Source: Candidatus Hydrothermarchaeota archaeon (GTDB lineage: Archaea > CAYFZR01). Taken from it: a DNA stretch of 64,000 bases. Positions 37,872 through 53,860 of the stretch are shown here, in pieces. How positions within the stretch are numbered: position 1 is the first letter of the stretch; each line of letters begins with the position of its first letter. A program made the translations under genes and the position numbers. Below the pieces are notes generated by a model. The model searched no databases. It saw nothing but the letters and a program-made list of their open reading frames with translations, and was not told where the DNA came from. Where the stretch lies: positions 8,021 to 72,020 of the forward strand of contig JBHIEG010000009.1 of NCBI GenBank assembly GCA_046760505.1, read 5' to 3'.

Positions 37872-39059
37872 TTGGCTGTTGAATTGAAGAAGGGAGTCTA
37901 CTGGGTAGGTGCCATAGACTGGAATATAAGGGATTTCCATGGATATTTAACTCCAAAAGGAACCACATACAACGCGTATCTTATTGTAGATGACAAAATA
38001 ACGCTTGTTGATACGGTAAGGCATGGATTCTTTGATGAAATGCTTAGGAGGATCAAAGAAATTGTTGATCCCAGAGAAATCGATTTTGTAGTTTCTAATC
38101 ATGTTGAAAAAGATCATTCAGGCTCTCTAATCGACATAATGAGATTGGCCAAAAATGCAGAAATTTATGCCACGAGAAAAGGGAAAGATGGCCTAATAAA
38201 ATACTACAAAAAAGATTGGCCTTTCAACATTGTTAAAACAGGAGACGAATTAGATATAGGCAAAAAAACCCTGATGTTCATCGAGGCGCCGATGTTGCAT
38301 TGGCCAGATAGTATGTTCACATACATAAAGGAGGATCATATTCTACTGCCAAACGATGCGTTTGGACAACATGTAGCGAGTCATCAAAGGTTTGATGATG
38401 AAGTAGACGTTATGGAAGACGCAGCCACCTATTATGCAAACATACTAATGCCTTTTGCTCCTATGATACTTAGGAAAATAGAAGAAGTGGTATATCTAGG
38501 AATCAAAATAGATATGATAGGACCAAGTCACGGGATAATATGGCGGAAGGAACCAGATAAAATAATCAAGGCATACGTTGATTGGAGCAAAGGAATCACA
38601 AGAGATAAGATCATAATCGTCTACGATACCATGTGGGGGAGCACAGAAAAAATAGCCAGATCAATCCTTCGAGGAATAAAAAGAGAAGGAATAGAGGCCA
38701 AATTGTTGAAGCTGAGAGAGAATCACAGGAGTTATGTTGTAAGAGAAGTTCTTGATTCTAAGGTAGTTTTGGTTGGCTCGCCAACAATTAACAATGGAAT
38801 TTTCCCTACGGTAGCAGATTTCATCACCTATCTTAAGGGCTTGAAACCCAAAAAGAAAATTGGAGCTTCTTTTGGTTCCTACGGCTGGGGAGGTGGCGCA
38901 TGTAATATTTTAAACAAAGAATTAAGAGAAATGGGTTTTGAAGTTTTAGATGCAAATCTAGAGTTTAAATACGCTCCGGATGAAAGTGAATTGCAGAAAT
39001 GCGTTGATTTTGGAAGAGAACTTGTAAAAAAGATGAGCACTCATATACCCAGCAATTAA
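37872..39059 (+). CDS. fprA: Flavodiiron protein (A-type flavoprotein)
   Basis: GTTYNAY, HVEKDH, HWPD, DAFGQH, TMWGSTE, GSYGWGGG. Confidence 0.95.
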   Translation: MAVELKKGVYWVGAIDWNIRDFHGYLTPKGTTYNAYLIVDDKITLVDTVRHGFFDEMLRRIKEIVDPREIDFVVSNHVEKDHSGSLIDIMRLAKNAEIYATRKGKDGLIKYYKKDWPFNIVKTGDELDIGKKTLMFIEAPMLHWPDSMFTYIKEDHILLPNDAFGQHVASHQRFDDEVDVMEDAATYYANILMPFAPMILRKIEEVVYLGIKIDMIGPSHGIIWRKEPDKIIKAYVDWSKGITRDKIIIVYDTMWGSTEKIARSILRGIKREGIEAKLLKLRENHRSYVVREVLDSKVVLVGSPTINNGIFPTVADFITYLKGLKPKKKIGASFGSYGWGGGACNILNKELREMGFEVLDANLEFKYAPDESELQKCVDFGRELVKKMSTHIPSN

Positions 39060-39198
39060 TAAACAATTTTGAAAGAACATTGAAGAGTTAAATACGAATT
39101 GAGGCGTATTGTGCAGTAAATATGACTAATTTCGTACAGAAATTTATATAAATCACAATAATTTATATGGAAATTCGTATAAATTTAGGGGGAATTGT

Positions 39199-39702
39199 AT
39201 GGAGAAAATCGAAGAAAAATTGCAAACCGCCTTTGCAGGAGAGAGCCAAGCAAACAGGAAGTATCTTGCATACTCAAAGAAAGCGGATGAAGAGGGCTAC
39301 AAGCAAATTGCAAGGTTATTCCGTGCAGTTGCAGCAGCAGAGACAATTCACGCGCATAACCATTTAAGAATAATGGGAGGCATCAAAACTACAGAAGAGA
39401 ATTTGAAGGCAGCGATAGAGGGCGAACACTACGAGTTTACGAAAATGTACCCAGAGTTTATAGAACAAGCAAATAAAGAGAGCAAAAAAAGAGCGGCTAG
39501 AAGTTTTGAGTGGGCAAACGAGGTAGAGAAAGTACATGGAGAGCTTTACTCCAAGTACCTCGAGAGGCTAAAGGCAGGCGAGAAATTTGAAGAGGAGGAC
39601 TTCTATGTTTGTGAGGTTTGTGGCTATACTGGAGAGGGAGAAACACCAGATAAATGCCCTGTATGCAGAGCTGTTAAAGAAAAATTTATGAAAATTGAAT
39701 AA
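39199..39702 (+). CDS. rbr: Rubrerythrin
   Basis: AFAGESQANRKY, ETIHA, EKVH, CEVCG...CPVC. Confidence 0.95.
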   Translation: MEKIEEKLQTAFAGESQANRKYLAYSKKADEEGYKQIARLFRAVAAAETIHAHNHLRIMGGIKTTEENLKAAIEGEHYEFTKMYPEFIEQANKESKKRAARSFEWANEVEKVHGELYSKYLERLKAGEKFEEEDFYVCEVCGYTGEGETPDKCPVCRAVKEKFMKIE

Positions 39703-39729
39703 TTTAGTGAAAATAGGATAGGGGTTTTT

Positions 39730-39894
39730 ATGGCAGAAAAATGGAGATGTACGATATGTGAATATGTCTATGATCCTGAAGAAGGGGATCCAGACGGCGG
39801 AATAGAAGCAGGCGTTAAATTCGAAGATTTACCAGGAGATTGGACCTGTCCTGTTTGTGGAGCATCAAAAGATATGTTTGAAAAAATCGAGTAA
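39730..39894 (+). CDS. Rubredoxin (54 aa, absent from ORF track)
   Basis: Manual translation [54 protein letters not shown]. Confidence 0.95.
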
Positions 39895-39903
39895 GGTGAT
39901 AAA

Positions 39904-40281
39904 ATGGAAGAAAAATCTTGTGGAGAAAATCTCTTTTGTGGTTTGAATAAACCTGCGAATATAAAAAGTATGAGCGATTTGGAGAAAAAACATACTCCAG
40001 TAATCGAGTCACCATCTAGGGTAAAAAAAGAAGAAGTATTCGAGGTTAGCGTAGAGATTGGAAAACTCCTAAAGCATCCAAACGAAATAGGACATTTTAT
40101 CCAGTGGATAGAACTTTACTGTGGAGATACTTTTCTAACGAGAGTTGATTTAACTCCTGAATTTACTGAACCAAAGATTACTGTTCCAGTACGTTTAACT
40201 CATGCTCATCCATTGAGAGCGATAGGAAGATGCAACCTCCACGGTCTTTGGGAGAATACCAAAGAAATTAATGTAGAATAA
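39904..40281 (+). CDS. sor: Superoxide reductase (neelaredoxin type)
   Basis: EKKHTP, HPNEIGHFIQWI, CNLHG. Confidence 0.92.
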   Translation: MEEKSCGENLFCGLNKPANIKSMSDLEKKHTPVIESPSRVKKEEVFEVSVEIGKLLKHPNEIGHFIQWIELYCGDTFLTRVDLTPEFTEPKITVPVRLTHAHPLRAIGRCNLHGLWENTKEINVE

Positions 40282-40307
40282 TCTTGAGGAAATTCTAAGT
40301 GATTAGC

Positions 40308-40730
40308 ATGAAGATAAATAAGGAAAAATTAGTAGAGTTGCTCAACGATGATCTCTCGTGGGAATATACAGCGTTGGTACAGTATGTGCAACACAGTGGA
40401 GTCATGACAGGCGCAGAATATGGGGACATTGTGAAAGAGATTAAAATTCATGCTACCGAGGAACTTCAGCATGCCTTAATATTGGTGGACCAGATCGATT
40501 ATTTGGGGGGTACACCAACCGCCAAAGTATATCTTGCCAAAACATCACGGGATCCGAGGGAGATGTTGCAACAAGATTTAGATGGTGAAGAAGACGCAAT
40601 AAGAAGATATAGAGAAAGAATAGAGCAGGCAGAAGAGCTTAAAGAATTTGCATTGGCCCAAAAACTCCGTGAAATATTGACTATGGAACAGGAACACGCC
40701 ATGGATCTTAAATTTGCTTTGGGGAGGTAG
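40308..40730 (+). CDS. Ferritin-like (bacterioferritin/DPSL-type) protein
   Basis: EYTALVQY, EELQHA, LGGTP, EQEHA ferroxidase ligands. Confidence 0.87.
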   Translation: MKINKEKLVELLNDDLSWEYTALVQYVQHSGVMTGAEYGDIVKEIKIHATEELQHALILVDQIDYLGGTPTAKVYLAKTSRDPREMLQQDLDGEEDAIRRYRERIEQAEELKEFALAQKLREILTMEQEHAMDLKFALGR

Positions 40731-41736: not shown

Positions 41737-42150
41737 TTATATGAAGAGATTAATCTCTGAGTCTTTGGCGGTATTGATGTAGGTTCCGATACCTGCTACT
41801 TCTACATCATCGACGAAATCTTCTTTTTTAATACCCATTATCTCCATGGACATATCGCAAGCAATCATCTTTACACCAAGCTCTCTAAGATCATCAAACT
41901 GCTCTTGTAAGAGTGGAACATTTTTTTCTTTCATTTTCTTTTTCATAAATCTACTTCCAATGCCGAGATAATCTTTTTTTGAAAGAGTTATGTTTTTGAG
42001 TCCATCTTTCTTAATCGCTTCTAATCCCCAAAATGTAAAGAATATTGTTACGTCCATTCCGAATGAAGCCGCGCCATTTGCTATATTGAATGCGGCATAC
42101 ACTCTCTCAAAATCATTACTAGAACATATAATTGTAAGTTTTTTCGCCAT
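41737..42150 (-). CDS. DsrE2/DsrE-like protein
   Basis: FFTFWGL, IACDMSMEIMG. Confidence 0.88.
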   Translation of the reverse strand: MAKKLTIICSSNDFERVYAAFNIANGAASFGMDVTIFFTFWGLEAIKKDGLKNITLSKKDYLGIGSRFMKKKMKEKNVPLLQEQFDDLRELGVKMIACDMSMEIMGIKKEDFVDDVEVAGIGTYINTAKDSEINLFI

Positions 42151-42387
42151 TTACTCACCTGTTTTTTTAATTATGATCTTCCAACCACCTTCGGGAAGAT
42201 CTAATATTTCTAAGACGGTATTCCCGGATTCTTTCATTGCAAGGGGCAATTCTTTCCTAGAGATATCGTGATCTATTAGTATTTCAAGAATGTCGCCATG
42301 ATTCATCTTAATCAACTTCTTTCTTGCTTCTACAAGTGGTTTTGGGCACAAGAGTCCTTTTGCATCCACGAAAAATGTGTTGGGCAT
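42151..42387 (-). CDS. TusA-family sulfur carrier
   Basis: DAKGLLCPKP. Confidence 0.9.
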   Translation of the reverse strand: MPNTFFVDAKGLLCPKPLVEARKKLIKMNHGDILEILIDHDISRKELPLAMKESGNTVLEILDLPEGGWKIIIKKTGE

Positions 42388-42396
42388 GGAACCACA

Positions 42397-42834
42397 TTAA
42401 AACGTCAATATCAGATTGTGATTCTCTATTTCCTTTACGAGTTCTCTATTTTCTATGAGTTTTACTCCATCTATCAAATCTTCGATGGATAACCCCCTTT
42501 TCTCAAGGGAGGATTTCAATGCATACAGAGTTCCTTGCAATTCGAGGAAATCTGATATGATTTCTAGGTTATTTGGTAAATGTATATCCTCTGGATTTTG
42601 ATGTTTTACTGCGCAATATACTCCGTCGCCCATTAAGATTATGGTAGCTTTCTGTTGTTTTGCGATAGCGGCATTTCCCACGTATATGGAGCCAAGAACA
42701 TCATCGATGTATCCATATGTTCCATGCGTGATAAGTATAAGCAAAGAAGGTACATCTCTCGTGGGTGGCGCTATTTTATCCAAATCTATAGTGCTCAAAT
42801 CTGGCTCGCATTCATCACAATATTCTTCCTCCAT
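42397..42834 (-). CDS. DsrF/TusC-like protein
   Basis: HGTYG, MGDGVY, SLEKRGL without an active-site Cys. Confidence 0.78.
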   Translation of the reverse strand: MEEEYCDECEPDLSTIDLDKIAPPTRDVPSLLILITHGTYGYIDDVLGSIYVGNAAIAKQQKATIILMGDGVYCAVKHQNPEDIHLPNNLEIISDFLELQGTLYALKSSLEKRGLSIEDLIDGVKLIENRELVKEIENHNLILTF

Positions 42835-42838
42835 ACTC

Positions 42839-43435
42839 TCACCCCGGAAAACTAATGGATTGATGAGACTCTTTTAGCCAATATATGAGATCGTAAAGTC
42901 CTACAAGGGGCAAATCCCCAACGATCACATCTTGTGTGAGTCCTCTAGCCTCTGCACATCTGGCGCATACTTTAATGTTGACTCCTTTTTCTATCATCTT
43001 CTTGAAGTGTTCTTCGATGTTTGGAAAATTCTTTGGGTTTTGTTTTTTGTGGGGAGCCCATACACCATCTATGTAAAGATAGAGATTTACATTGTACCCT
43101 TTCTCCCTGGCTTTTAGGGCGAGATTTAGAGCCACATCTGTATATTCAGATATGTAAGGACCTCTATTTAGCACTACTGTTAAAGTTTTCGCTTTTTTCT
43201 TTAAATAGATCTTTATCGCTTCTTCCGATTTTTCAATTCCTAAAACTTCATGTTTTTGATCTTTCGCCCATTCAGATATGTTATCAGGTGCATCTGGGTC
43301 TGTAGTGATTATTTCTAAAATATCTCCATGATTTAGTTTTTCTATCTCGGTTTTTGTAATAACTAGAGGATAGGGACACTTCTTTCCTCTAACGTCTATC
43401 GAACGAGTAGGTTTTATTTCATCCATATTCTTCAC
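42839..43435 (-). CDS. TusA-DsrE(TusD) fusion
   Basis: DVRGKKCPYP then RGPY..YIDGV..VCARCAEARGL. Confidence 0.85.
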   Translation of the reverse strand: MKNMDEIKPTRSIDVRGKKCPYPLVITKTEIEKLNHGDILEIITTDPDAPDNISEWAKDQKHEVLGIEKSEEAIKIYLKKKAKTLTVVLNRGPYISEYTDVALNLALKAREKGYNVNLYLYIDGVWAPHKKQNPKNFPNIEEHFKKMIEKGVNIKVCARCAEARGLTQDVIVGDLPLVGLYDLIYWLKESHQSISFPG

Positions 43436-44308
43436 CTAAAAGAGCAAAACCCTATCCCATTGCTCCATAATCAAATCAACTAGATCATCGTAGGGTCTTT
43501 CCGTAATTTTTATGTTCTCCATTAGCATTTCTTTAATTAAACCATTGGCTTTGAGATGTGGATCACTTGCTGTGATCTCTCCTCCTTTTTCCAGAAAGGT
43601 TTTAAGCAGAGGCTCAATCTGTGATCCCTTCTTTGCAGTCCAGACGCCATCACTTAGAAGAAAAATTTCTGCTCCATTTTCCTCTTTGAGTAAGTCAACC
43701 GCTAACATCAAAGCATTTTCTATATTCTCGTTATTAAAAGGAGGTTTTGTAATTATTATCCCAATTTTGTTCTTCTTCTTACCCAAAATCTCATCTATAA
43801 TCTCTATAACTTCCTCCGGAGATAAAACTCCTTCTATTGCTTTTCCATTGAAAATGGAAGTGGGTGCTTTGATTATTCCTCTCTTCTCAGCCTCAGGAGA
43901 TGGAAAAGAGAGTAACTTTACCGTGATGTTTTCTTTTTTATCGTAAATAGCCTCAAAAATGTTCTTAGTTAGTGTTTGGCATCTCTTTCCTGGAGGTACA
44001 TTTCTAAAGATCTCTATCAATATTCCTTTTTCTTCCAAGGCTTTTCTAACTTCCATTGCATGTTTTATTTTTTCTATGAGTTCTTCCTCGCTCGGTACGC
44101 CAACTATAACCAGTTTATTATCTATTGCTATGGATGGAGTTCGAGTGACACCATATCTTGCTGCTTTTATTTTTCCTTCTTCTTCGTCGGTGCTTATTTC
44201 CACGTATTCTACCTCTGGCATCTCACCTACTACTTTTTCTATGATTTCTTTTGCGTATGGACAATCGCGACATTTTGAGGCTGTGAACAACTCTAATAGA
44301 ACTTTCAT
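43436..44308 (-). CDS. Tandem thioredoxin-fold domains fused to a DsrH/DsrE-like domain
   Basis: CRDC...RTPSIAID; second Trx-like unit GKRC...KAPT; FLLSDGV...YDDLVDLIM. Confidence 0.72.
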   Translation of the reverse strand: MKVLLELFTASKCRDCPYAKEIIEKVVGEMPEVEYVEISTDEEEGKIKAARYGVTRTPSIAIDNKLVIVGVPSEEELIEKIKHAMEVRKALEEKGILIEIFRNVPPGKRCQTLTKNIFEAIYDKKENITVKLLSFPSPEAEKRGIIKAPTSIFNGKAIEGVLSPEEVIEIIDEILGKKKNKIGIIITKPPFNNENIENALMLAVDLLKEENGAEIFLLSDGVWTAKKGSQIEPLLKTFLEKGGEITASDPHLKANGLIKEMLMENIKITERPYDDLVDLIMEQWDRVLLF

Positions 44309-44371
44309 TTGTATCTCCATGGAAGCTGCTATTTTTCTATAATTTTACCTTATGAATCATATGCAAGCAAC

Positions 44372-44492
44372 TATAAATATTTTACCACCAATAAGTGGTG
44401 TTACTTTGAAATAAATAAATCCTAGAGATAGAGTGTAATAAGTCCAATAAATCTAAAATTTAACACCACTTTCCAGTGGTAAAATATTTATA
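44372..44492. promoter_or_regulatory. Two inverted 32-bp operator+TATA modules of divergent promoters
   Basis: 44461-44492 TAACACCACTTTCCAGTGGTAAAATATTTATA vs reverse complement of 44372-44403 TAACACCACTTATTGGTGGTAAAATATTTATA (28/32 identical). Confidence 0.8.
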
Positions 44493-44550
44493 TAATTAGT
44501 AGGAGAATAGTACAAGCCTAGAGAAAGGTTAACAATCAACCGGTGGGAAA

Positions 44551-45294
44551 ATGGATATTGAAGAATCGTTAGTCCAGTTAGGTCTAAACAGATATGAGGT
44601 CAAGACCTATCTTGCAATACTAAAAAGTTCGGAGATATCTGCACCTTCAATAAGCAATATTTCTGGAGTTCCGTTTTCAAGGATATATGATACTCTTTCG
44701 AGTTTAGAAAGAATAGGTCTGGTAGAATGTAAGTTGCAAAGACCTAAACTCTATCGCGCAAGCGATCCAAGCATTGCCATTGAAAATTTACTCAAAAATT
44801 TGGAGAAGAAGCAGAAAAAAGAATTGGAATATAAGAGCCGAATTGCAAAGAAGATTCTTCCATCTTTGGTAGAAATTTACAACGAAAAATCTGAGGCGGA
44901 TGAAACAATATGGACGATTCGAGGAAATGAAAATGTTATGAAAAAGATTGATGAGATAGTTCCAAAGACAAGAGAAATTCTTAGAATTGCAGGAAAAAAA
45001 CCATTTTTCATGTTAGAATGTGGTGAGGTGGTTGAAAAGGCGGCTCTTAAGGGAGTCAAGATTAAGGCCATTGGAGAGTTCAATCCTGAGTGCATCGAAC
45101 TCCTTAATCGCATTCATGCTAAATACAAAGAGTTTCAATTCATGTATCAGTATCTCTTAATAGGAGATGAGAAGTTTGTACTTATCGTTGTCCACGATCA
45201 AAGTGGAATTCCTCTTGGAATATATAGTGAAAACGCTGATTTTGTCAAAGCAAATTTAGAACTGTTTGAGCGCATGTGGAAGGAGATAGAATAA
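44551..45294 (+). CDS. TrmB-family regulator
   Basis: LGLNRYEVKTYL, VPFSRIYDTL, RPKLY. Confidence 0.9.
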   Translation: MDIEESLVQLGLNRYEVKTYLAILKSSEISAPSISNISGVPFSRIYDTLSSLERIGLVECKLQRPKLYRASDPSIAIENLLKNLEKKQKKELEYKSRIAKKILPSLVEIYNEKSEADETIWTIRGNENVMKKIDEIVPKTREILRIAGKKPFFMLECGEVVEKAALKGVKIKAIGEFNPECIELLNRIHAKYKEFQFMYQYLLIGDEKFVLIVVHDQSGIPLGIYSENADFVKANLELFERMWKEIE

Positions 45295-45461
45295 CATTGG
45301 CACACCTTTTTTAGGCTAAATCATACGAAAGTGATGGAAAGAAAAACTTTTTTCGTTATTTAACAAAATAATAGATGATTAGATATGATTGGAGAAGAAG
45401 TTGAAAAAACTGTTAGGGTTAGACTAAGGACTGTCGCCAATATCGATAAGGGGAATTTTCT

Positions 45462-47306
45462 ATGAATGTTAAGGTCTATAGTTTATCCACTTGTCCTTAT
45501 TGTAGATTAGTAGAGAGTTTTTTGAACACTCATGGAGTAAAATATGAGAGAATAATGATAGACGAACTCAAGGGAGAGGAACAGAAAAAGGCAATCGCAG
45601 AGGCCTATCGTTTAAGCGGTCAGAGAAGCTTTCCTGTTACTCGTATAAACGAGAAAACAATTATCGGCTTCGACGAGTCAATGTTAACGAAGGCTTTAGG
45701 CCTTAAGGAAAAGGAAGTTGACCTATCAACACGAATAGATGAGGAAAAAAAGACAGATATCCAGCAATACTATGATCTCATAAGAAAAGATGCTGAGAAA
45801 ACCGGATACATCTTAAATCCAAATAGAGAATTTGTAGACATGATATTGTTGGGCCTTCTAGAAAATAGAGAACGCTATGGCTATGCCACCTGCCCCTGTA
45901 GATTGGCTAGCGGAAAAATAGAAGAGGACAATGAGATAATCTGTCCATGCACAAACAGAGATCTTTATCTCCAAAGATATGATCGTTGTCTCTGCGGACT
46001 TTATGTCACCGAGAATTACAACCCGTATGATCCCACGAGCCCTTTTTGCCTCGCAGAGTATCATGAAGAAATGCTAGAACACGATGTTTCTACTCCAACT
46101 TACGTTAAGGTATTTGGTTACTCTATGATGGGCGTTAACGAAGAAAGCATCAAAAATAACTTCAAACAGGTGGTAAGTTCATGTGAATTAAACCCGGAAT
46201 ATATAAGATGGAGAGAGAAGGATGCTTTAATTTCTAAAATCTTTGAAGATAGATACCGAGTAACTTTAAAAATGAATATCTCCAGAGATTTTTATACCTA
46301 TCAGGTGTGGGCAATCTCAGTGAAAGAATCGCCATCTGAAATATTCAATTTAATAGATCTCTTTGCCTCACTGGATTTCTCTTGGAATCACAATCAATTA
46401 TTTGCTTTAGATATCCTTTTGAATGAGAAGGATTTTTTCGATGAAAACCTAGATGATCTCCTACCAAAATCAGATAGGGTTGGAAGCAAACTCCGTGACG
46501 GTATTTGGATAATGACCAGCGACCAAGAAAAGAGGATAGGAAGGGAAAGATATATCGTCACTCCCATTCGAGGAGATATCGTTGAGGATATAATAACCAT
46601 AGAATCCAGTTATCACCTCTTAAATCTAGAGAAGCAAAAATATACTCTGATATCCGATCGTTTGAGTCGAATCGAGGATGAAACAGTATCTAAATTGGGA
46701 TCTATAAGCATAAGCCTACCCAAAGCAAGCCACGAACTCCTAAAGGACTGGATGCATGAAATTAGCAACAGTTTCTCTGAGATAGCAGGCATTACTGAGG
46801 AGGTGAACCACCACTATCTCGATGCAACATCACATAGAGATAGCTTAAAATCGATATTCGAAGAGTGGAATGAAAGTACCATAGACAATCTTCCATTGAT
46901 CTCATCTTCCATTCTAAGCAAGGTTAGGGATATCGAGAGAGATTACGAAAGACTGTACAATAGAATAGATGGCATACGCAAGGAAATGGAAGACACTATC
47001 AATATTTTAAGAACAAAAATAGATTTGATTCAACAGAAACAGAGTTTTGACCTCCAGAAAAGTATGCATGTTACTACACAGACACAACTGGATCTACAGA
47101 AAGCGGTCAAAGGAGTGTATGTATTTTTAGTGGCATTTTATTTCACTGAACTTGCAAGAATAGTTTTCGAGGCAATGGAAGCGAGAGGAATAATTCATAT
47201 TGCACCCTCCATACCAACTGCCTTGTTCATTCCGGTGGCGCTTTTTTTGGGATGGTTACTATCGATGAAGACAGAAAAATTGATCAGAAGGAAAAGGGAG
47301 CATTGA
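45462..47306 (+). CDS. Glutaredoxin + ferredoxin:thioredoxin reductase catalytic domain + DUF3422/CorA-like membrane domain fusion
   Basis: TCPYC..SFPV; YGYATCPCR, ICPC, RCLCGLY; coiled coil and two C-terminal TMs. Confidence 0.75.
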   Translation: MNVKVYSLSTCPYCRLVESFLNTHGVKYERIMIDELKGEEQKKAIAEAYRLSGQRSFPVTRINEKTIIGFDESMLTKALGLKEKEVDLSTRIDEEKKTDIQQYYDLIRKDAEKTGYILNPNREFVDMILLGLLENRERYGYATCPCRLASGKIEEDNEIICPCTNRDLYLQRYDRCLCGLYVTENYNPYDPTSPFCLAEYHEEMLEHDVSTPTYVKVFGYSMMGVNEESIKNNFKQVVSSCELNPEYIRWREKDALISKIFEDRYRVTLKMNISRDFYTYQVWAISVKESPSEIFNLIDLFASLDFSWNHNQLFALDILLNEKDFFDENLDDLLPKSDRVGSKLRDGIWIMTSDQEKRIGRERYIVTPIRGDIVEDIITIESSYHLLNLEKQKYTLISDRLSRIEDETVSKLGSISISLPKASHELLKDWMHEISNSFSEIAGITEEVNHHYLDATSHRDSLKSIFEEWNESTIDNLPLISSSILSKVRDIERDYERLYNRIDGIRKEMEDTINILRTKIDLIQQKQSFDLQKSMHVTTQTQLDLQKAVKGVYVFLVAFYFTELARIVFEAMEARGIIHIAPSIPTALFIPVALFLGWLLSMKTEKLIRRKREH

Positions 47307-47377
47307 AAATGTTAGGCGCCATCTTTATATAGGTGTAAAAATTCTCCCCAATTATACAAAAAATTCGAGGTGATTGC

Positions 47378-47557
47378 ATGCCTCCAGTTGTAGATCATGA
47401 AAAATGCGATGGCGATGGAATTTGCGTGGATGTATGTCCAACTGAAGTATTTGAACTTGAAGAAGGAAAATCCATTGTTGCACGTCCAGAAGAATGTATA
47501 GAATGCGAAGTGTGCGTTGATGAATGCCCTCAAGGAGCGATAACCTTAGAAGAATGA
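47378..47557 (+). CDS. Dicluster ferredoxin (59 aa, absent from ORF track)
   Basis: MPPVVDHEKCDGDGICVDVCP...ECIECEVCVDECPQGAITLEE; SD GAGGTGA. Confidence 0.93.
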   Translation: MPPVVDHEKCDGDGICVDVCPTEVFELEEGKSIVARPEECIECEVCVDECPQGAITLEE

Positions 47558-47766
47558 AATTTGAAGGGATAATAAGCACAATAACCTGTTCGATGGACAG
47601 TTTTTAATTACTACTCATCCTTCCTTTCCTTAATGGATTCAGAAAATTACCTTTTTCACAAAAACCTAACATATCAGTTAGTGCTAGTGTTACGTAAGGT
47701 TAAGACAAAAAACTTTTAAAACATCTACGCAAACTATTTTCGAACAAATTTCCGAGAGAAAAGATA

Positions 47767-48009
47767 ATGAAAAGAAATTTAAAGCCAGATAGATCAATAG
47801 ATCTAATTGGATTATACTGTCCAGTTCCAATTCTTAAGACAAGGGAAGCATTAGATGAGATGAAGGTAGGGGAAATCCTAGAGGTTCTCGCCGATGACCC
47901 GGCTGCAGAAGAGGACTTAATTCGTTTCGCAAAAAGAACAGGACAAGAACTTCTTGAAATAAAAAAGGAAGATGAGATCATTCGTTTCCTCTTCAAGAAA
48001 GCAAAATAG
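47767..48009 (+). CDS. TusA-family sulfur carrier
   Basis: DLIGLYCPVP, LADDPAA. Confidence 0.92.
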   Translation: MKRNLKPDRSIDLIGLYCPVPILKTREALDEMKVGEILEVLADDPAAEEDLIRFAKRTGQELLEIKKEDEIIRFLFKKAK

Positions 48010-48030
48010 AATAAAAAGGAGTTGTTATTC

Positions 48031-48402
48031 ATGCCTGAACATAGAAAGAAAATAATGTATGTACAAACAAGTGGAGTAAATACTCCAGAAAGACTATATT
48101 CTCCATTTATACTGGCACAAACAGCCAAAACAATGGATATCGATGCCATTATTTATTTCCTAGGTATGGGAGTTACCGTTCTTAAGAAAGGAGAGGCTGA
48201 AAAAATAAAACTTGGCAGTTTTCCCAGTCTTAAAGAGGTGATAGACCAAACCATCAAAATGGGTATTGAGTTCTATGTATGTGAACAGAGTACTCAGCTT
48301 TTGAACATGGAGAGAGGAGATTTTATAGAGGGGACTAAGATAGTCGGAGCAGCCACCTTGAATGATCTTGTGTTGGAAGTAGATGGAGTAATGTGGTTTT
48401 AG
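48031..48402 (+). CDS. DsrE-family protein
   Basis: SPFILA, YVCEQS, VGAAT. Confidence 0.85.
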   Translation: MPEHRKKIMYVQTSGVNTPERLYSPFILAQTAKTMDIDAIIYFLGMGVTVLKKGEAEKIKLGSFPSLKEVIDQTIKMGIEFYVCEQSTQLLNMERGDFIEGTKIVGAATLNDLVLEVDGVMWF

Positions 48403-48416
48403 AGGGAAATGGAAAA

Positions 48417-49577
48417 ATGAAAAAAGTATACATGGACTATGCTGCATCTTCTCCAACGGATCCGCGTGTTATTGAAGCAATGATTCCGTACTACATCGAG
48501 AAGTATGGAAATCCATCATCAATATACTCATTTGCCCATGAAGACAAATTAGCGGTAGAAGAATCTAGAAAAAAGGTGGCAGAACTCATTGGAGCTAGAG
48601 ACGATGAGATTATCTTTACTTCAGGCGCAACTGAGAGTATTAACTTGGCTTTAAAGGGAGTAGCCTACAGAAATAAAGAGAAAGGAAACCATATCATTAC
48701 CTCAAAAATAGAGCATATTTCAGTTCTGAACACATGCAAGTATTTGCAGAGAGAAGGCTTCAAGGTCTCGTATATCCCGGTAGACGAATATGGAACGGTT
48801 GATGTGGAGAAGTTAAAGGAGGAGATATCAGATAAAACCATACTCATTTCTATCATGTATGCTAACAACGAGATAGGGACAATACAACCAATTAGGGAGA
48901 TAGGAGAGATAGCCAGTGACAAGGGAATTTATTTCCATGTTGACTCGGTTTCTTCCTTGGGGAAGGTACCAATAGATGTTGTAAGAGAGAATATAGATTT
49001 GTTATCGATGTCATCGAACGATATCTACGGTCCTAAAGGTAAAGGAGCCTTGTATATTAAAAAAGGAACTAAAATAGTTCCCATTTTACATGGGGGTGGA
49101 CAGGAACACGGTTTGAGATCCGGTACCGAAGACGTTCCAGGCATTGTTGGTATGGGTAAGGCTGCTGAAATTATGAAAGAAGAGATGGAAGAGGAGAGTA
49201 AAAGGCTGAAAAAATTGAGAGATATGATAATTAAAGGCGCCACTGAGAGCATAGACCATTGCTATCTAAATGGTCATCCAACAAATAGACTTCCAAACAA
49301 TGTAAATCTTAGGTTTAACTACATAGAAGGAGAGTCTTTAATTCTGAGCCTCGATATGTATGGAATTTATGCTTCTACAGGCTCTGCATGTACTTCGAAG
49401 ACTTTAGAGCCTTCTCACGTTCTTATTGGAATAGGATTGTCACATGAACTGGCACATGGATCGCTACAACTCACGCTTGGAAAATCGAATGATGAAGGGG
49501 ATGTCAAATATTTTTTAGAAGTTCTGCCAGAAGTAGTGAGCAAGTTAAGAGAACTGTCTCCATTAACACCGAGGTGA
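48417..49577 (+). CDS. iscS: Cysteine desulfurase IscS/NifS-like (SSND at the usual PLP-lysine motif)
   Basis: YMDYAAS, FTSGATES, RSGTE, STGSACTS; upstream of iscU. Confidence 0.9.
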   Translation: MKKVYMDYAASSPTDPRVIEAMIPYYIEKYGNPSSIYSFAHEDKLAVEESRKKVAELIGARDDEIIFTSGATESINLALKGVAYRNKEKGNHIITSKIEHISVLNTCKYLQREGFKVSYIPVDEYGTVDVEKLKEEISDKTILISIMYANNEIGTIQPIREIGEIASDKGIYFHVDSVSSLGKVPIDVVRENIDLLSMSSNDIYGPKGKGALYIKKGTKIVPILHGGGQEHGLRSGTEDVPGIVGMGKAAEIMKEEMEEESKRLKKLRDMIIKGATESIDHCYLNGHPTNRLPNNVNLRFNYIEGESLILSLDMYGIYASTGSACTSKTLEPSHVLIGIGLSHELAHGSLQLTLGKSNDEGDVKYFLEVLPEVVSKLRELSPLTPR

Positions 49578-49581
49578 TTTA

Positions 49582-49959
49582 ATGTATAGCGAAAAAGTGA
49601 TGGAACACTTCAGAAATCCTCGAAACGTAGGAGTAATTCCAGACGCGGATGGAGTAGGAACAGTGGGAAATCCCGTTTGTGGAGATCTCATGAGCGTCTA
49701 CATAAAAGTAGAGAATAATATTCTAAAAGACGTTAAATTCCAGACTTTTGGATGCGGCGCAGCAATAGCCACAAGCAGCATGATTACCGAATTAGCAAAA
49801 GGAAAAACCATAGATGAGGCGCTAAAAATCACAAAAAAAGATGTTGCAGAAGCTTTAGAAGGTTTACCCCCAGTAAAAATGCATTGTTCTAATCTTGCTG
49901 CAGATGCATTGCATGCTGCAATAGAAGATTATAAGAAGAAAAGATCTCAGGAGAGTTGA
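49582..49959 (+). CDS. iscU: Fe-S scaffold IscU/NifU
   Basis: GNPVCGD, FGCGAAIA, PPVKMHCS. Confidence 0.96.
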   Translation: MYSEKVMEHFRNPRNVGVIPDADGVGTVGNPVCGDLMSVYIKVENNILKDVKFQTFGCGAAIATSSMITELAKGKTIDEALKITKKDVAEALEGLPPVKMHCSNLAADALHAAIEDYKKKRSQES

Positions 49960-50349: not shown

Positions 50350-50988
50350 TTACATCGGGTATCTGACATCGTAAAAAGGCTTTTCCAAGTCCTCAATTAT
50401 TTTAGAAGGTATATCCACGACTTTTTTAGACTTCTTAATCAAAACGTGATCGCTCGTTGCGATACATTCAAAACTCAAAAGGTCCCTATCACAATGTTTT
50501 GACGTGATTGCAGTGCCATTTAAACCTTTTTTCTCTATAAAATCTTTTACCTTGCTCGACAGTTCTCCGCTCTTTCTGACAGGACTATCAAAAACAAAAA
50601 CTACTTCTCTTGGAGGATAATGACTCAAGACATCTAAAATGAGATTCATTGCCTTCATTGTATATTCATTTATCCTATACTTTCCAAAAGAGGCTTCAAC
50701 GTCCCTTATGAATGAGTCATCGCATTTTATTAAAGGTCTATCCATTAGTATGCACTCCGTGGTGATCAAAACGTTATATCCATCGATCCCTAAATTTAAG
50801 TTCTCTAATTCATTCATTTTTATGCGCCTTTTGCAAAGCAATTCTGCCTCTTTCTTAGAAAATACAGCTCTAGCAAGAAGATTTCTTTCCTTCGGTGAAA
50901 GCATATGGTGATCTGAAACGAACTTTAGGGCGCTTTTCTTCTTGTAACCATGATTTAAAAGAAATCTAAGCTCATTGGCAGCTTTCAA
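50350..50988 (-). CDS. DUF434 family protein
   Basis: LRFLLNHGY, IDGYNVLIT, DSFIRD, SGEL, ATSD. Confidence 0.82.
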   Translation of the reverse strand: MKAANELRFLLNHGYKKKSALKFVSDHHMLSPKERNLLARAVFSKKEAELLCKRRIKMNELENLNLGIDGYNVLITTECILMDRPLIKCDDSFIRDVEASFGKYRINEYTMKAMNLILDVLSHYPPREVVFVFDSPVRKSGELSSKVKDFIEKKGLNGTAITSKHCDRDLLSFECIATSDHVLIKKSKKVVDIPSKIIEDLEKPFYDVRYPM

Positions 50989-50992
50989 TACT

Positions 50993-53860
50993 TTATTCCA
51001 TGTAAATTGCTGGTTTAAATGGTTTTGCGTGTTTTCTCTTATTTTTTGGGTCATATGCTTCTTCTTCCGTAACAATATGGATATTTGTTTTTGTTTGATC
51101 TGATAAAAAGTCTTTCGATTCCCACAAAATGTCTTTTTCTTCTAGAGAAAAATCTAGGATTTTTTTAATTCTCTCGGGATGCATCTTGTTTACTTCATCT
51201 ATGATGAGCAAGGCAAATTTTTTTATTTCTTCTGTATAACTCTTCAATTCTTCATCTTTTTTAAAGGCATCCAAAATTTTAGGAAACTCTATCTTTCCTT
51301 TCAGTCTTTCTTTCAGCATTACTCGGTAGACCTTGTCTTTCCATGGCGGAGCCAGATATATGTAGGTGTTTTTTGGCGTTATATTTGTTATTTTAAGTAT
51401 GGCTTCTATATCCGCCATGAGATTATCAATATATTCTTCTGCCAATTCTACATTGTAATCAATTAGTTTTTCATCAACTTTTGGCCATTCCGCGTTGAAT
51501 ACAAAACCTGAGTTACCCATTCTCTCCCATAACTCCTCACACATATGGGGTATGAATGGAGCAAGCAATCTTATCCAGACATTCATTACCCGCATTAGCA
51601 CTTCTTTGTTTGGCTTTTTTGCTCTTCTTAAATATCTCCTAACATCGCGCATCAAAGAAAAGAAAGACTCTTGAACCGCTCTTCTTGTTTGAAAAGAGTT
51701 CAATGAGTTTGTTGTCTCTCTTATCCTTTCCTGAAGTCTACTTAGTAGCCATCTATCTATAGATCTAACCTCGTCTTCATATGAATCCATGTCTATGATA
51801 TCGTTGGCAAGTTTCCAGAATCTCTGAAGATTTTGCTCCATGGATCTTATTTGCCTCTCCTGCCAGTCGAAGTCTTGCCATGGATCTGCTGAGAACATCA
51901 GGTACATTCTTGTGGTATCTCCTCCATACCTCTCCAAGGCATCTTGGAACAGGATTACGTTTCCTTTGGACGATGACATTTTTTCTCCTTCTAAAAGACC
52001 TATTCCAAAGACCACAATCCCACGGGGCCAGTTTTCTTCAGGGAATATCGCGGTATGGTGAAAGATGTGGAATGAGAGGTGGTTTCCTATCAAATCCTTT
52101 GCGGAGAATCTTATGTTCACCGGATACCAGTAGGTGAATTCTCTTCTCATCGCCTTCAATGCGTGGATGCTTATGTTTTTTTTCTCTGAGATTTCTTCAG
52201 GGGAGCCTAAACCAAAGAAAATATAATCGAATACATTATCGTCAAGTTGGTCTGGACTCAGGTTTTTTATTATGTGGGATATGGTGTAGTAAGCCATGTA
52301 GACAGTAGAATCGCTCAGAGGCTCTACTATCCAGTTTAAATCCCAAGGTATCCTTGTTCCAAGACCGATCTTCCTAGCGCAGGCCCAGTCATTCAGCCAG
52401 TCTATTACATAGAGAAAGTTTGCTCTCACTTCCTCAGGTACAATTATCATCTGGTTAAGACATTTTCTCGCTGATTCCTTCCACTCTTTATCGGAGTACT
52501 TCAGAAACCACTGATCGCTCAATAGCTTAACCAAACACTTTGTGCCGCATCTGCATATTACAGGCTTTTCTGAGAAATCCCACATTAAATTGGCTTTATT
52601 TTCTTTTATAAAATCGTTTTTGACCATTTCTCTTGCTTCAAATACGCTATAATTACCATATTTTGGAATATTTCCTAGCATACGCCCTTTTGCAAATTCA
52701 ATTCTGTATATTTCTTCTGTCAATTCTTCTAATTTTTTATCATTCTGATCATTTACGTTGTATTTTTCTACGATCTCTTTTGCAGGATATTCTCCGTAAC
52801 CCTCTACTTCTATGAGAGAAATAGGTTCTATTTGACTCACATCAATATTGTATTCTTCAAGAAAAGAAGAATCATCTTTCAATTGTTTCAACGCGACGTA
52901 ATCATAGGGTGCATGAGCAGGAACGCTCATTACTATGCCGCTAGCATAATCAGGATCCACGAAGGAGGCGGGGAGTATAATTAACTGATTACCAAGAGCA
53001 GGATTCTTTGCGTATTTTCCAACAAGAACTTTTCCGCTTATGATTTTTTCTTTATGGACATTATATCCCTGTTCTTTAAGTTTTTCCACTGATTCTTCGC
53101 TTATTATCCACTTTTCCCCGTCTACATCTGCGACAATGTAATCAATATCGGGTCTAACCCACAGATTTGTGGCACCAAAAACTGTTTCTGGTCTTAAGGT
53201 TCCGCATGGAATCTTGTAATCATTGTACTCAAATTTTAGTAGGGTAAATGCTAATATGTTGGCTTCTTCACCTTCCAGTAGATCGTGATCTCCTACAGGA
53301 TTTTTGTCATTTGGACACCATTTTACCGGGTGCTCTCCCCTAGCAACATATCCTTTCTCTCTTAATTTTCTAAACTGCCATTCTATGAATTTATTGTACT
53401 GAGGATCAGTTGTAGTGAATTCTCTTCTCCAATCTATAGAGTAACCAATTCTGTTCATGTTATTCTTGTATTCCCTGCAGAAATATTCCACAATCTTGTG
53501 CGGATTGGTAAACATGGACAGAGTCTTTTCATCAACCCGGTAGAGATCTTTGTAGAGACTTAATACACTTTGATCTCCTCGCTGAAACCTACTTGCAATT
53601 CCAACTACCGGTGCACCAGTAACGTGCCAAGCCATTGGAAACAATACATTGTAACCCTGCATTCTTTTAAAACGGGCGATTACATCAGGTACGGTATATG
53701 TTCTCCCATGTCCTACATGCATTGAACCGGATGGATAGGGGTAGGCAACAGTGATGTAGAACTTTGGTTTTTCTTGGGGCTTTGAATGGTGAAGACCTTC
53801 CTTTTTCCAAATCTCTTGCCATTTTGCTTCGAATTCTCTCCACTCTGACATGACTTTCAC
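50993..53860 (-). CDS. leuS: Leucine-tRNA ligase (archaeal type)
   Basis: [31 protein letters not shown]. Confidence 0.97.

Follow-up and report, generated by a model that had tools for sequence, protein, structure and literature searches.

A window of 64,000 nucleotides from a Candidatus Hydrothermarchaeota archaeon (contig JBHIEG010000009.1, positions 8,021 to 72,020 of the forward strand) carries at 45462..47306, on the plus strand, a gene for a 614-aa protein in which a glutaredoxin-like (Grx) domain, an Fe-S domain of the ferredoxin:disulfide reductase (FDR) type, a linker and a DUF3422 membrane module are joined in one chain. The design of this fusion is rare but conserved. The function favoured here, with a probability of about 0.4, is that of a sensor-effector: the redox head would set the activity of an oligomeric DUF3422 pore, probably for a cation, in an oxidative-stress, iron and Fe-S-repair response.

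DUF3422 proteins form a widespread membrane family, and their conserved fusion to a reductase provides the first testable handle on their function. No paper on DUF3422 (PF11902, IPR021830, COG4949) was found by a full-text search of main texts, supplements and subscription journals being outside its scope. The main texts likewise yielded no paper on the Grx-FDR-DUF3422 fusion, in keeping with the preliminary description of this DNA, which knew of no account of such a protein. Databases already list the fusion proteins as 'DUF3422 family protein' or 'ferredoxin-thioredoxin reductase catalytic subunit/glutaredoxin'.

Domain layout, distribution and origin of the fusion

The reading frame 45462-47306 runs without a stop or a change of frame. 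An SD-like (Shine-Dalgarno-like) GGGG precedes the start codon ATG. The TrmB-family gene before it is followed by a T-run, which points to a separate promoter region for the fusion open reading frame (ORF). Three Pfam domains were recognized, namely Glutaredoxin (PF00462, residues 3-66, 42.3 bits with a cut-off of 22.9), FeThRed_B (PF02943, residues 104-187, 71.3 bits, cut-off 22) and DUF3422 (PF11902, residues 266-601, 61.2 bits, cut-off 25, profile positions 71-411 of 418). The Grx-like and FtrB-like models of NCBIfam match the protein below their cut-offs only, and all of its Grx equivalog models stay under the cut-off, the best being that of the YruB family (53.6 vs 88.55).

The Grx-like domain (45468..45701, residues ~3-80) has the active site C11-P-Y-C14 and is followed by the FDR/FTR-catalytic-like domain (45771..46022, residues 104-187; FTR, ferredoxin-thioredoxin reductase) with the motifs CPC (144-146), CPC (161-163) and CLC (176-178). 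The flexible linker (46029..46088, residues 190-209) has a predicted local distance difference test score (pLDDT) <50 and corresponds to gapped, unconserved columns in the 24-row alignment A1. In the AlphaFold2 models a cytoplasmic alpha/beta domain of DUF3422 comes next (46089..46565, residues ~210-368), and then, as models and conservation indicate, three long helices forming a helical bundle and a stalk (46572..47111, residues 371-550). The first transmembrane helix (TM1; 47112..47177, residues 551-572) runs on from the stalk helix, and a short outer loop (47178..47207, residues 573-582) separates it from TM2 (47208..47267, residues 583-602), which is placed by hydropathy and conservation; hydropathy gives the two hydrophobic segments as ~551-572 and 580-602. 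All these parts are read from the plus strand, and the chain ends in a basic tail (47268..47303, net charge +4). Pfam, hydropathy and AlphaFold2 thus bear out the order proposed in the preliminary description: a Grx with CPYC, a full FTR motif set, an alpha/beta region, a long coiled coil (modelled as long helices) and two terminal TM segments. By the positive-inside rule, the basic flanks of TM segments face the cytoplasm; the basic tail (+4) and the weakly acidic inter-TM loop (residues 570-582, net charge -1) would therefore put both termini and the redox head on the cytoplasmic side, where ferredoxin is.

A protein-cluster search (5.8 billion clusters, 8000 candidates scored) returned 24 proteins, 21 of which are full-length relatives of 612-669 aa with at least 98% coverage and 35-74% identity. 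Precomputed Pfam assignments comprise all three domains in 20 of the 21; the remaining one, P0003, is without the Grx call only and aligns with a CYRC motif. A locus scan with one genome per species gave 25 related loci: one from an uncultured archaeon (L001, 74% identity), one from Deltaproteobacteria, 14 from Planctomycetota (Brocadiaceae and relatives) and nine from Nitrospirota. Twenty-four of them, spread over these four lineages, span nearly the whole protein and the last is a fragment at a contig end. In the planctomycete class around L013 a full-length copy is present in 14 of 132 genomes. In the species-level genome set the archaeon's own phylum and class are represented by a single genus with two genomes, each of which carries the gene.

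In a set of 1.84 billion representatives, 1136 proteins matched the query at E <= 1e-3. Only about six Grx-FDR-DUF3422 fusions are found among the 150 matches listed (P0001, P0015, P0025, P0026 and, as divergent members, P0036 and P0038), the others listed being stand-alone DUF3422 proteins (~420-460 aa), soluble proteins of the Grx-FDR type with ~200 aa, and FDR or Grx proteins by themselves. Searches with the C-terminal region and with alignment A2 yielded 5 and 10 proteins, respectively, without new architectures.

The preliminary description had allowed for an assembly artefact and had proposed to check continuity at the junction. The region 45400-47600 lies within a single contig, without joints or gaps, in all four metagenome runs inspected. 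These runs were assembled separately, but they belong to one hydrothermal-vent metagenome study, from which this DNA may itself derive. Their sole difference is G for A at position 46145 in one run, a synonymous change (GAA -> GAG) at Glu228. The independent evidence comes from the relatives: since the fusion is kept in other phyla, a chimera is excluded. With the open frame, the unbroken contigs, the 21 proteins, the near-full-length loci and the copies in the planctomycete class all speaking against it, and nothing found in its favour, an assembly chimera or a read-through of two genes was rejected and is given next to no credence.

In a quick maximum-likelihood tree of DUF3422 (38 rows; the careful search is unfinished) 12 of the 14 rows with the Grx-FDR fusion form one group, with a support of 94 in the Shimodaira-Hasegawa-like approximate likelihood ratio test (SH-aLRT). 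Within this group the archaeal pair is sister to 10 bacterial rows. The divergent fusions P0036 and P0038 sit on a long branch at an unresolved fork beside it. The tree allows, but does not prove, that the main fusion group arose once and then spread between phyla.

The redox head and the membrane module

In alignment A1 conservation is at least 90% for every one of the eight cysteines of the head (C11, C14, C144, C146, C161, C163, C176 and C178). The Grx part has a thioredoxin-type fold by Foldseek, with 3ic4 at TMt 0.81 and a root-mean-square deviation (rmsd) of 1.0 and 5cax at TMt 0.80-0.81. The best solved relative of the head is 7PWE, matched over residues 3-185 (E 1.2e-30; Foldseek E 3e-13), and the next is the FDR of Methanosarcina acetivorans, 4TPU (E 5.4e-21), whereas plant-type FTR chains match weakly (E 1.5e-3 and worse). 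Together with the relatives of ~200 aa, 7PWE confirms the earlier statement that soluble Grx-FTR fusions exist; no paper on 7PWE was found in main texts. The six cysteines of the FDR domain align with those of 7PWE and 4TPU. By homology to FTR, C144, C161, C163 and C176 are presumably the ligands of a [4Fe-4S] cluster and C146-C178 the redox disulfide. The middle residue of the last CxC motif is Leu here, Tyr, Phe or Leu in relatives and Tyr in 7PWE and 4TPU. Plant FTR has a CHC motif with His and a separate variable subunit; with CLC in place of CHC, the domain belongs with the FDR type. FDRs are described in PMC6262447 and PMC7278568 as Fe-S enzymes of archaea and bacteria related to the FTR catalytic subunit (FTRc), and according to PMC6262447 they serve dedicated small thioredoxin-like thiol proteins. 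On its sequence the head is thus an FDR-type ferredoxin:disulfide reductase with its own glutaredoxin-like acceptor, for which cluster and activity are predicted.

A soluble, split version of the pair is encoded on the same contig about 4 kb before the window (L042:1172-1794, minus strand) and also in the sister genome G001. It consists of a Grx-like gene of 93 aa with CIFC and an FDR gene of 114 aa with CPC..CPC..CLC, the latter sharing 56% identity with residues 100-186 of the fusion; with an overlap of 4 nt, the pair is translationally coupled. Since the genome has this separate soluble pair, the membrane fusion is an additional, specialised copy. An apparent in-frame TGA/TAG had raised the idea of selenocysteine in the paralogous Grx, which was rejected: these are two ordinary overlapping genes in different frames.

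The fusion is the sole DUF3422 protein of the genome. The full-length AlphaFold2 model contains the alpha/beta domain (~210-368), helices 371-421, 424-469 and 491-575 and a last helix 583-613; with a predicted TM-score (pTM; TM-score, template modelling score) of 0.53, its placement of the head relative to the module is uncertain. The C-terminal 410 residues, modelled with a 38-row alignment, reached pLDDT 89.6 and pTM 0.75, and here helices 371-421 and 424-469 are followed by a ~95-residue helix (480-574) continuing into TM1, and then by TM2. Over the 38 rows conservation within the family peaks at the stalk-TM1 junction: R517 and T518 are conserved at 89% and Q527, Q532, T538, Q542 and Q546 at 71-82%, while Y560 and F569 in TM1 reach 92% and P591 in TM2 97%. 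The conserved polar residues of the stalk lie mostly on one face of the helix, at wheel angles of 200-280 degrees. Such a junction with a one-sided polar stripe favours a pore or a tight oligomer interface.

The preliminary description had assigned the C-terminal part to a CorA/DUF3422 architecture. The DUF3422 half of this assignment stands by Pfam; of the CorA half, a resemblance in overall build is supported by Foldseek, and kinship is not shown. In a Foldseek comparison of the C-terminal model with the PDB, 56 matches were obtained at E <= 1e-3, and CorA or Mrs2 make up 26 of the 27 listed, the exception being YwmB (2fpn) at rank 41. The best CorA/Mrs2 match has E 2.1e-5, the probabilities are 0.97-1.0 and the alignments extend over ~400-470 columns, with low TM-scores (0.16-0.38). 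A second pass with VIA-align placed a Campylobacter CorA first (8zah_B, Z 12.6, rmsd 2.4 over 119 residues), with ZntB 3nvo at Z 12.3, and a VIA search independent of Foldseek also found members of the CorA family (8q8q, Z 11.5; 4ev6, Z 11.0; 7nh9, Z 10.6). The stalk helix continuous with TM1 and the two C-terminal TM helices are the CorA-type layout.

Several results count against CorA kinship, and against a CorA-type pore. The VIA alignments with CorA (Z 10-12.6) cover the helical bundle only, model residues 182-320, and unrelated helical proteins, spectrin-like and designed bundles, exceed the CorA chains, with a top Z of 13.1. The alpha/beta domain does not superpose on the CorA N-domain in VIA; its matches there are the N-domain of spermine synthase (Z 9.9) and YwmB (Z 8.1). 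The GxN signature, sought as G[MVIL]N, is found at the aligned end of TM1 in none of the 38 rows (GLN occurs elsewhere in the tail in 3 of them), PF01544 (CorA) gives no match to the fusion protein at E <= 0.1, no CorA was found with the profile of alignment A2 against the PDB, and a comparison by hhalign with the CorA proteins of the genome itself gave a probability of 3.8%, the CorA profile having 3 rows only. As judged from the models, the module has a CorA-type subunit architecture, which is a statement about build and not about homology or channel function.

Gene neighbourhoods in bacteria and archaea

In bacteria the fusion has a steady neighbour, a protein of 116-119 aa whose ferritin-like half consists of two helices (ExxH) and whose C-terminal part is a CxxC..CxxC ribbon. 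It adjoins the fusion in 20 of the 23 loci that have an upstream flank, in Planctomycetota, Nitrospirota and Deltaproteobacteria. The matches of its ferritin-like half are EncFtn/erythrin-like and all below cut-offs. Among Planctomycetota this partner (e.g. L004:5614-5964) is 82-91% identical, the fusion proteins diverging more. In 11 loci it is joined by another half-ferritin of ~78 aa, often upstream, and the two may together represent a split mini-rubrerythrin. In L002 a PerR-like regulator precedes the cassette and genes for hemerythrin and catalase are close by, and in L004 a histidine kinase and a GGDEF response regulator are encoded upstream. In Nitrospirota the fusion gene is found inside a histidine-biosynthesis operon, between hisF-like and hisIE-like genes (L018:3963-8542, with the half-ferritin partner, and L008:3292-8627, where the partner is absent). 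The presence of the two-gene cassette within the histidine operon shows that fusion and partner move as a unit.

The nearest stand-alone DUF3422 genes were examined in seven metagenome loci, several of them incomplete. Genes for HD_5 (HD-GYP-like) proteins lie beside them in L030:795-4344, L031:2508-6058 and L033:3694-5856. Other neighbours are ODP-type di-iron metallo-beta-lactamase-fold genes (L030, L031), Rrf2 (L030), a cysteine desulfurase with DsrE_2 (L031) and the hybrid-cluster protein Hcp (L035). Oxygen, peroxide, iron and Fe-S stress are the theme common to the neighbours, which is circumstantial evidence.

Further fusions combine the same elements differently. Those of an N-terminal 2x[4Fe-4S] ferredoxin with DUF3422 (P0039, P0047) fall in different subclades of the quick tree, a Grx-FDR-MarR protein (P0057) has 341 aa, and Grx-FDR occurs with rubredoxin in both orders, Grx-FDR-rubredoxin and rubredoxin-Grx-FDR (P0044 and P0032, respectively). 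The ferredoxin-DUF3422 and Grx-FDR-MarR proteins make up a pattern in which a redox input module is joined to different outputs, and this favours the sensor-effector reading. Taken together, the reductase fusion, the ferredoxin fusions and the di-iron, peroxide and Fe-S neighbourhood point to a redox-linked action at the membrane.

In the window, a gene for a 59-aa 2x[4Fe-4S] ferredoxin (47378..47557, plus strand, Fer4 53.8 bits) begins 71 nt downstream of the fusion, and there is no T-run between the two genes. It is followed by genes for TusA, DsrE, an IscS/NifS-like cysteine desulfurase and IscU (47767..49959, plus strand, Pfam), which have the same order in L001. The ferredoxin gene, too, has the same position in L001, and in the window it heads the TusA-DsrE-IscS-IscU block. 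Judged by position, its product could be an electron donor to the fusion, but the gene may just as well be part of the Fe-S assembly block. The earlier proposal that the adjacent ferredoxin feeds the fusion rests on the two archaeal genomes and did not extend further: a ferredoxin-motif ORF within 3 kb of the fusion is present in 1 of the 25 related loci, the archaeal L001.

Upstream, at 37872..40730 on the plus strand, Pfam recognizes a flavodiiron protein FprA (ODP + flavodoxin), a rubrerythrin, a desulfoferrodoxin-type superoxide reductase and a ferritin-like protein; this oxidative-stress block lies upstream of the fusion in L001 as well. Both blocks are given as context and are not shown to belong to the fusion system. 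Between the oxidative-stress block and the fusion the window has an insertion at 41737-45294 that is absent from L001, where a DUF5714/MbdU-like gene occupies the place of the sulfur-relay block. It comprises a minus-strand sulfur-relay block, with genes for DsrE_2 (41737-42150), DsrE/DsrH (42397-42834), a TusA-DsrE fusion (42839-43435) and a 294-aa fusion of Thioredoxin_3 with DsrH/TusB (43436-44320), and the plus-strand gene for a TrmB-family regulator (44551-45294). In all, the window encodes seven TusA/DsrE/DsrH-type domains and IscS/IscU within 6 kb. Further on, between the genes for IscU and leucyl-tRNA synthetase, a minus-strand ORF (50350-51075) encodes a 241-aa DUF434 + DUF5616 protein; it overlaps the 3' end of the leucyl-tRNA synthetase ORF as listed.

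Proposed function and comparison with known systems

According to the sensor-effector reading, the fusion would act as one inner-membrane protein with its N- and C-termini both in the cytoplasm, the head being tied to the CorA-type-like DUF3422 module by a disordered linker of ~20 residues. Electrons would pass from reduced ferredoxin to the [4Fe-4S] cluster, on to the C146/C178 disulfide and from there to C11/C14 of Grx, so that reduced ferredoxin would keep the cluster, disulfide and Grx dithiol of the head reduced. Exposure to oxidants or an oxidised ferredoxin pool would alter the head, which would thereby report on the ferredoxin/thiol pool or on oxidant damage, and the altered head would change the activity of an oligomeric DUF3422 pore. 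The cargo would be a cation, most likely iron or another divalent metal. If this is true, a redox-gated branch would be added to the CorA-like channels, and metal handling would be coupled to oxidative stress in anammox relatives, Nitrospirota and a deep-branching vent archaeon. The bolder version is regarded as rather doubtful. In it DUF3422 would be a new family of 2-TM oligomeric cation channels, CorA-shaped and GxN-free, and the fusion the first known case in which the redox state of ferredoxin and thiols gates a channel directly, by way of an Fe-S disulfide-reductase head; strict anaerobes could then close or open a path for iron or divalent metals seconds after an oxidant arrives.

The sensor-effector reading is built on observed domains, catalytic cysteines, topology signals, gene context and a conserved fusion, and the steps added to them, that is electron path, oligomerisation, transport, ion and coupling, are those that we infer. 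This counts against it, as do the following points. At every column of the DUF3422 module Cys is present in 5 of the 38 rows at most, so there is no conserved disulfide within the protein through whose reduction the head could gate the module, and the redox-gated channel that the preliminary description had named as a possibility is left without a target for simple disulfide gating; either the redox-dependent conformation of the head is sensed or the head reduces something else nearby. The linker varies in length and sequence among relatives, which, with its low pLDDT, fits a tethered enzyme at least equally well. The half-ferritin partner is not beside the fusion in L001, L008 and L024 and was not found in the window (tblastn best E 0.11) or, with one query, in the archaeal genome. 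Arguments from gene context are indirect, and many of the loci, both those with the fusion and those with stand-alone DUF3422, are kin, closely so among the 25 fusion loci.

A membrane-tethered reductase is the main alternative, held to be somewhat less probable than the sensor-effector. DUF3422 would then be an oligomeric anchor or scaffold, and the head would swing on its linker and reduce disulfides or persulfides of clients at the membrane. The disordered, variable linker and the membrane module without conserved Cys agree with it, and so do the CxxC..CxxC of the conserved bacterial partner, the seven sulfur-relay domains and IscS/IscU close by in the window and the service of FDRs to dedicated small thiol proteins as given in PMC6262447. 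As clients one can tentatively name the half-ferritin/Cys4 partner in bacteria and, here, the TusA/DsrE/IscS sulfur-relay proteins or peroxide-detoxifying enzymes. However, such a tether leaves unexplained why the best conservation lies at the polar-striped stalk-TM1 junction and why plain ferredoxin-DUF3422 fusions exist; the genome already has a soluble Grx+FDR pair, and the half-ferritin gene is absent here by the one query used. It is unlikely, and more so than the tether, that the protein is a redox or oxygen sensor that transports nothing, with DUF3422 relaying a conformational signal to partners such as HD-GYP-type enzymes or regulators. HD_5 adjoins stand-alone DUF3422 in three of the seven metagenome loci (three of the other four are incomplete or without upstream flank), a histidine kinase and a GGDEF response regulator precede the L004 cassette and the Grx-FDR-MarR fusion exists, but Pfam finds no signalling output domain in the fusion protein or its window neighbours and the signalling neighbours are not conserved across fusion loci. 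Very little speaks for an ordinary Mg2+ channel of the CorA family with an incidental redox domain, a highly improbable reading: CorA/Mrs2 do lead the Foldseek matches, yet GxN is found in 0/38 rows, PF01544 gives no match and hhalign stays at 3.8%, and the genome contains two canonical CorA genes elsewhere (264 and 260 bits), from which it follows that the fusion protein is not the housekeeping Mg2+ channel.

Among known systems the closest to the head is 7PWE, entitled in the PDB a glutaredoxin/ferredoxin disulfide reductase fusion protein, from Desulfotalea psychrophila. It has the same order of Grx and FDR and the identical CPC-x14-CPC-x12-CxC spacing, with Tyr in the last CxC where the fusion has Leu, but it is a soluble protein of 196 aa whereas the fusion has 425 further residues that make up the linker and the DUF3422 module. 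The PF02943 domain and the six cysteines are also shared with 4TPU and with plant and cyanobacterial FTRc (7BZK, 1DJ7); 4TPU has a rubredoxin domain and no Grx, and neither 4TPU nor FTRc is membrane-bound.

The membrane module has in common with CorA/Mrs2/ZntB a cytoplasmic domain, a stalk-TM1 helix, a second TM helix, termini inside and a basic tail. It differs from them in the absence of GxN and of sequence or profile similarity and in its different-looking alpha/beta domain. These proteins form the '2-TM-GxN' family (PMC6972854, PMC11919701), which is defined by its GxN signature (PMC6972854). Stand-alone DUF3422 proteins (PF11902) have ~420-460 aa, come mostly from Pseudomonadota and are without a redox head; the nearest of them (P0022, P0023, P0027) are 33-38% identical to the module, with a structural match in the Atlas at TM 0.80.

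MbfA-type iron exporters consist of an erythrin ferritin-like domain and a VIT1 membrane domain. The bacterial partner genes match the erythrin region of MbfA weakly (E 0.0025, far below the cut-off), and MbfA has another membrane fold and carries its ferritin element in the same protein, while that of the fusion loci is a separate gene, absent from this archaeon. As an analogy only, both systems pair a half-ferritin element with a membrane transport-like element in a setting of peroxide and iron stress.

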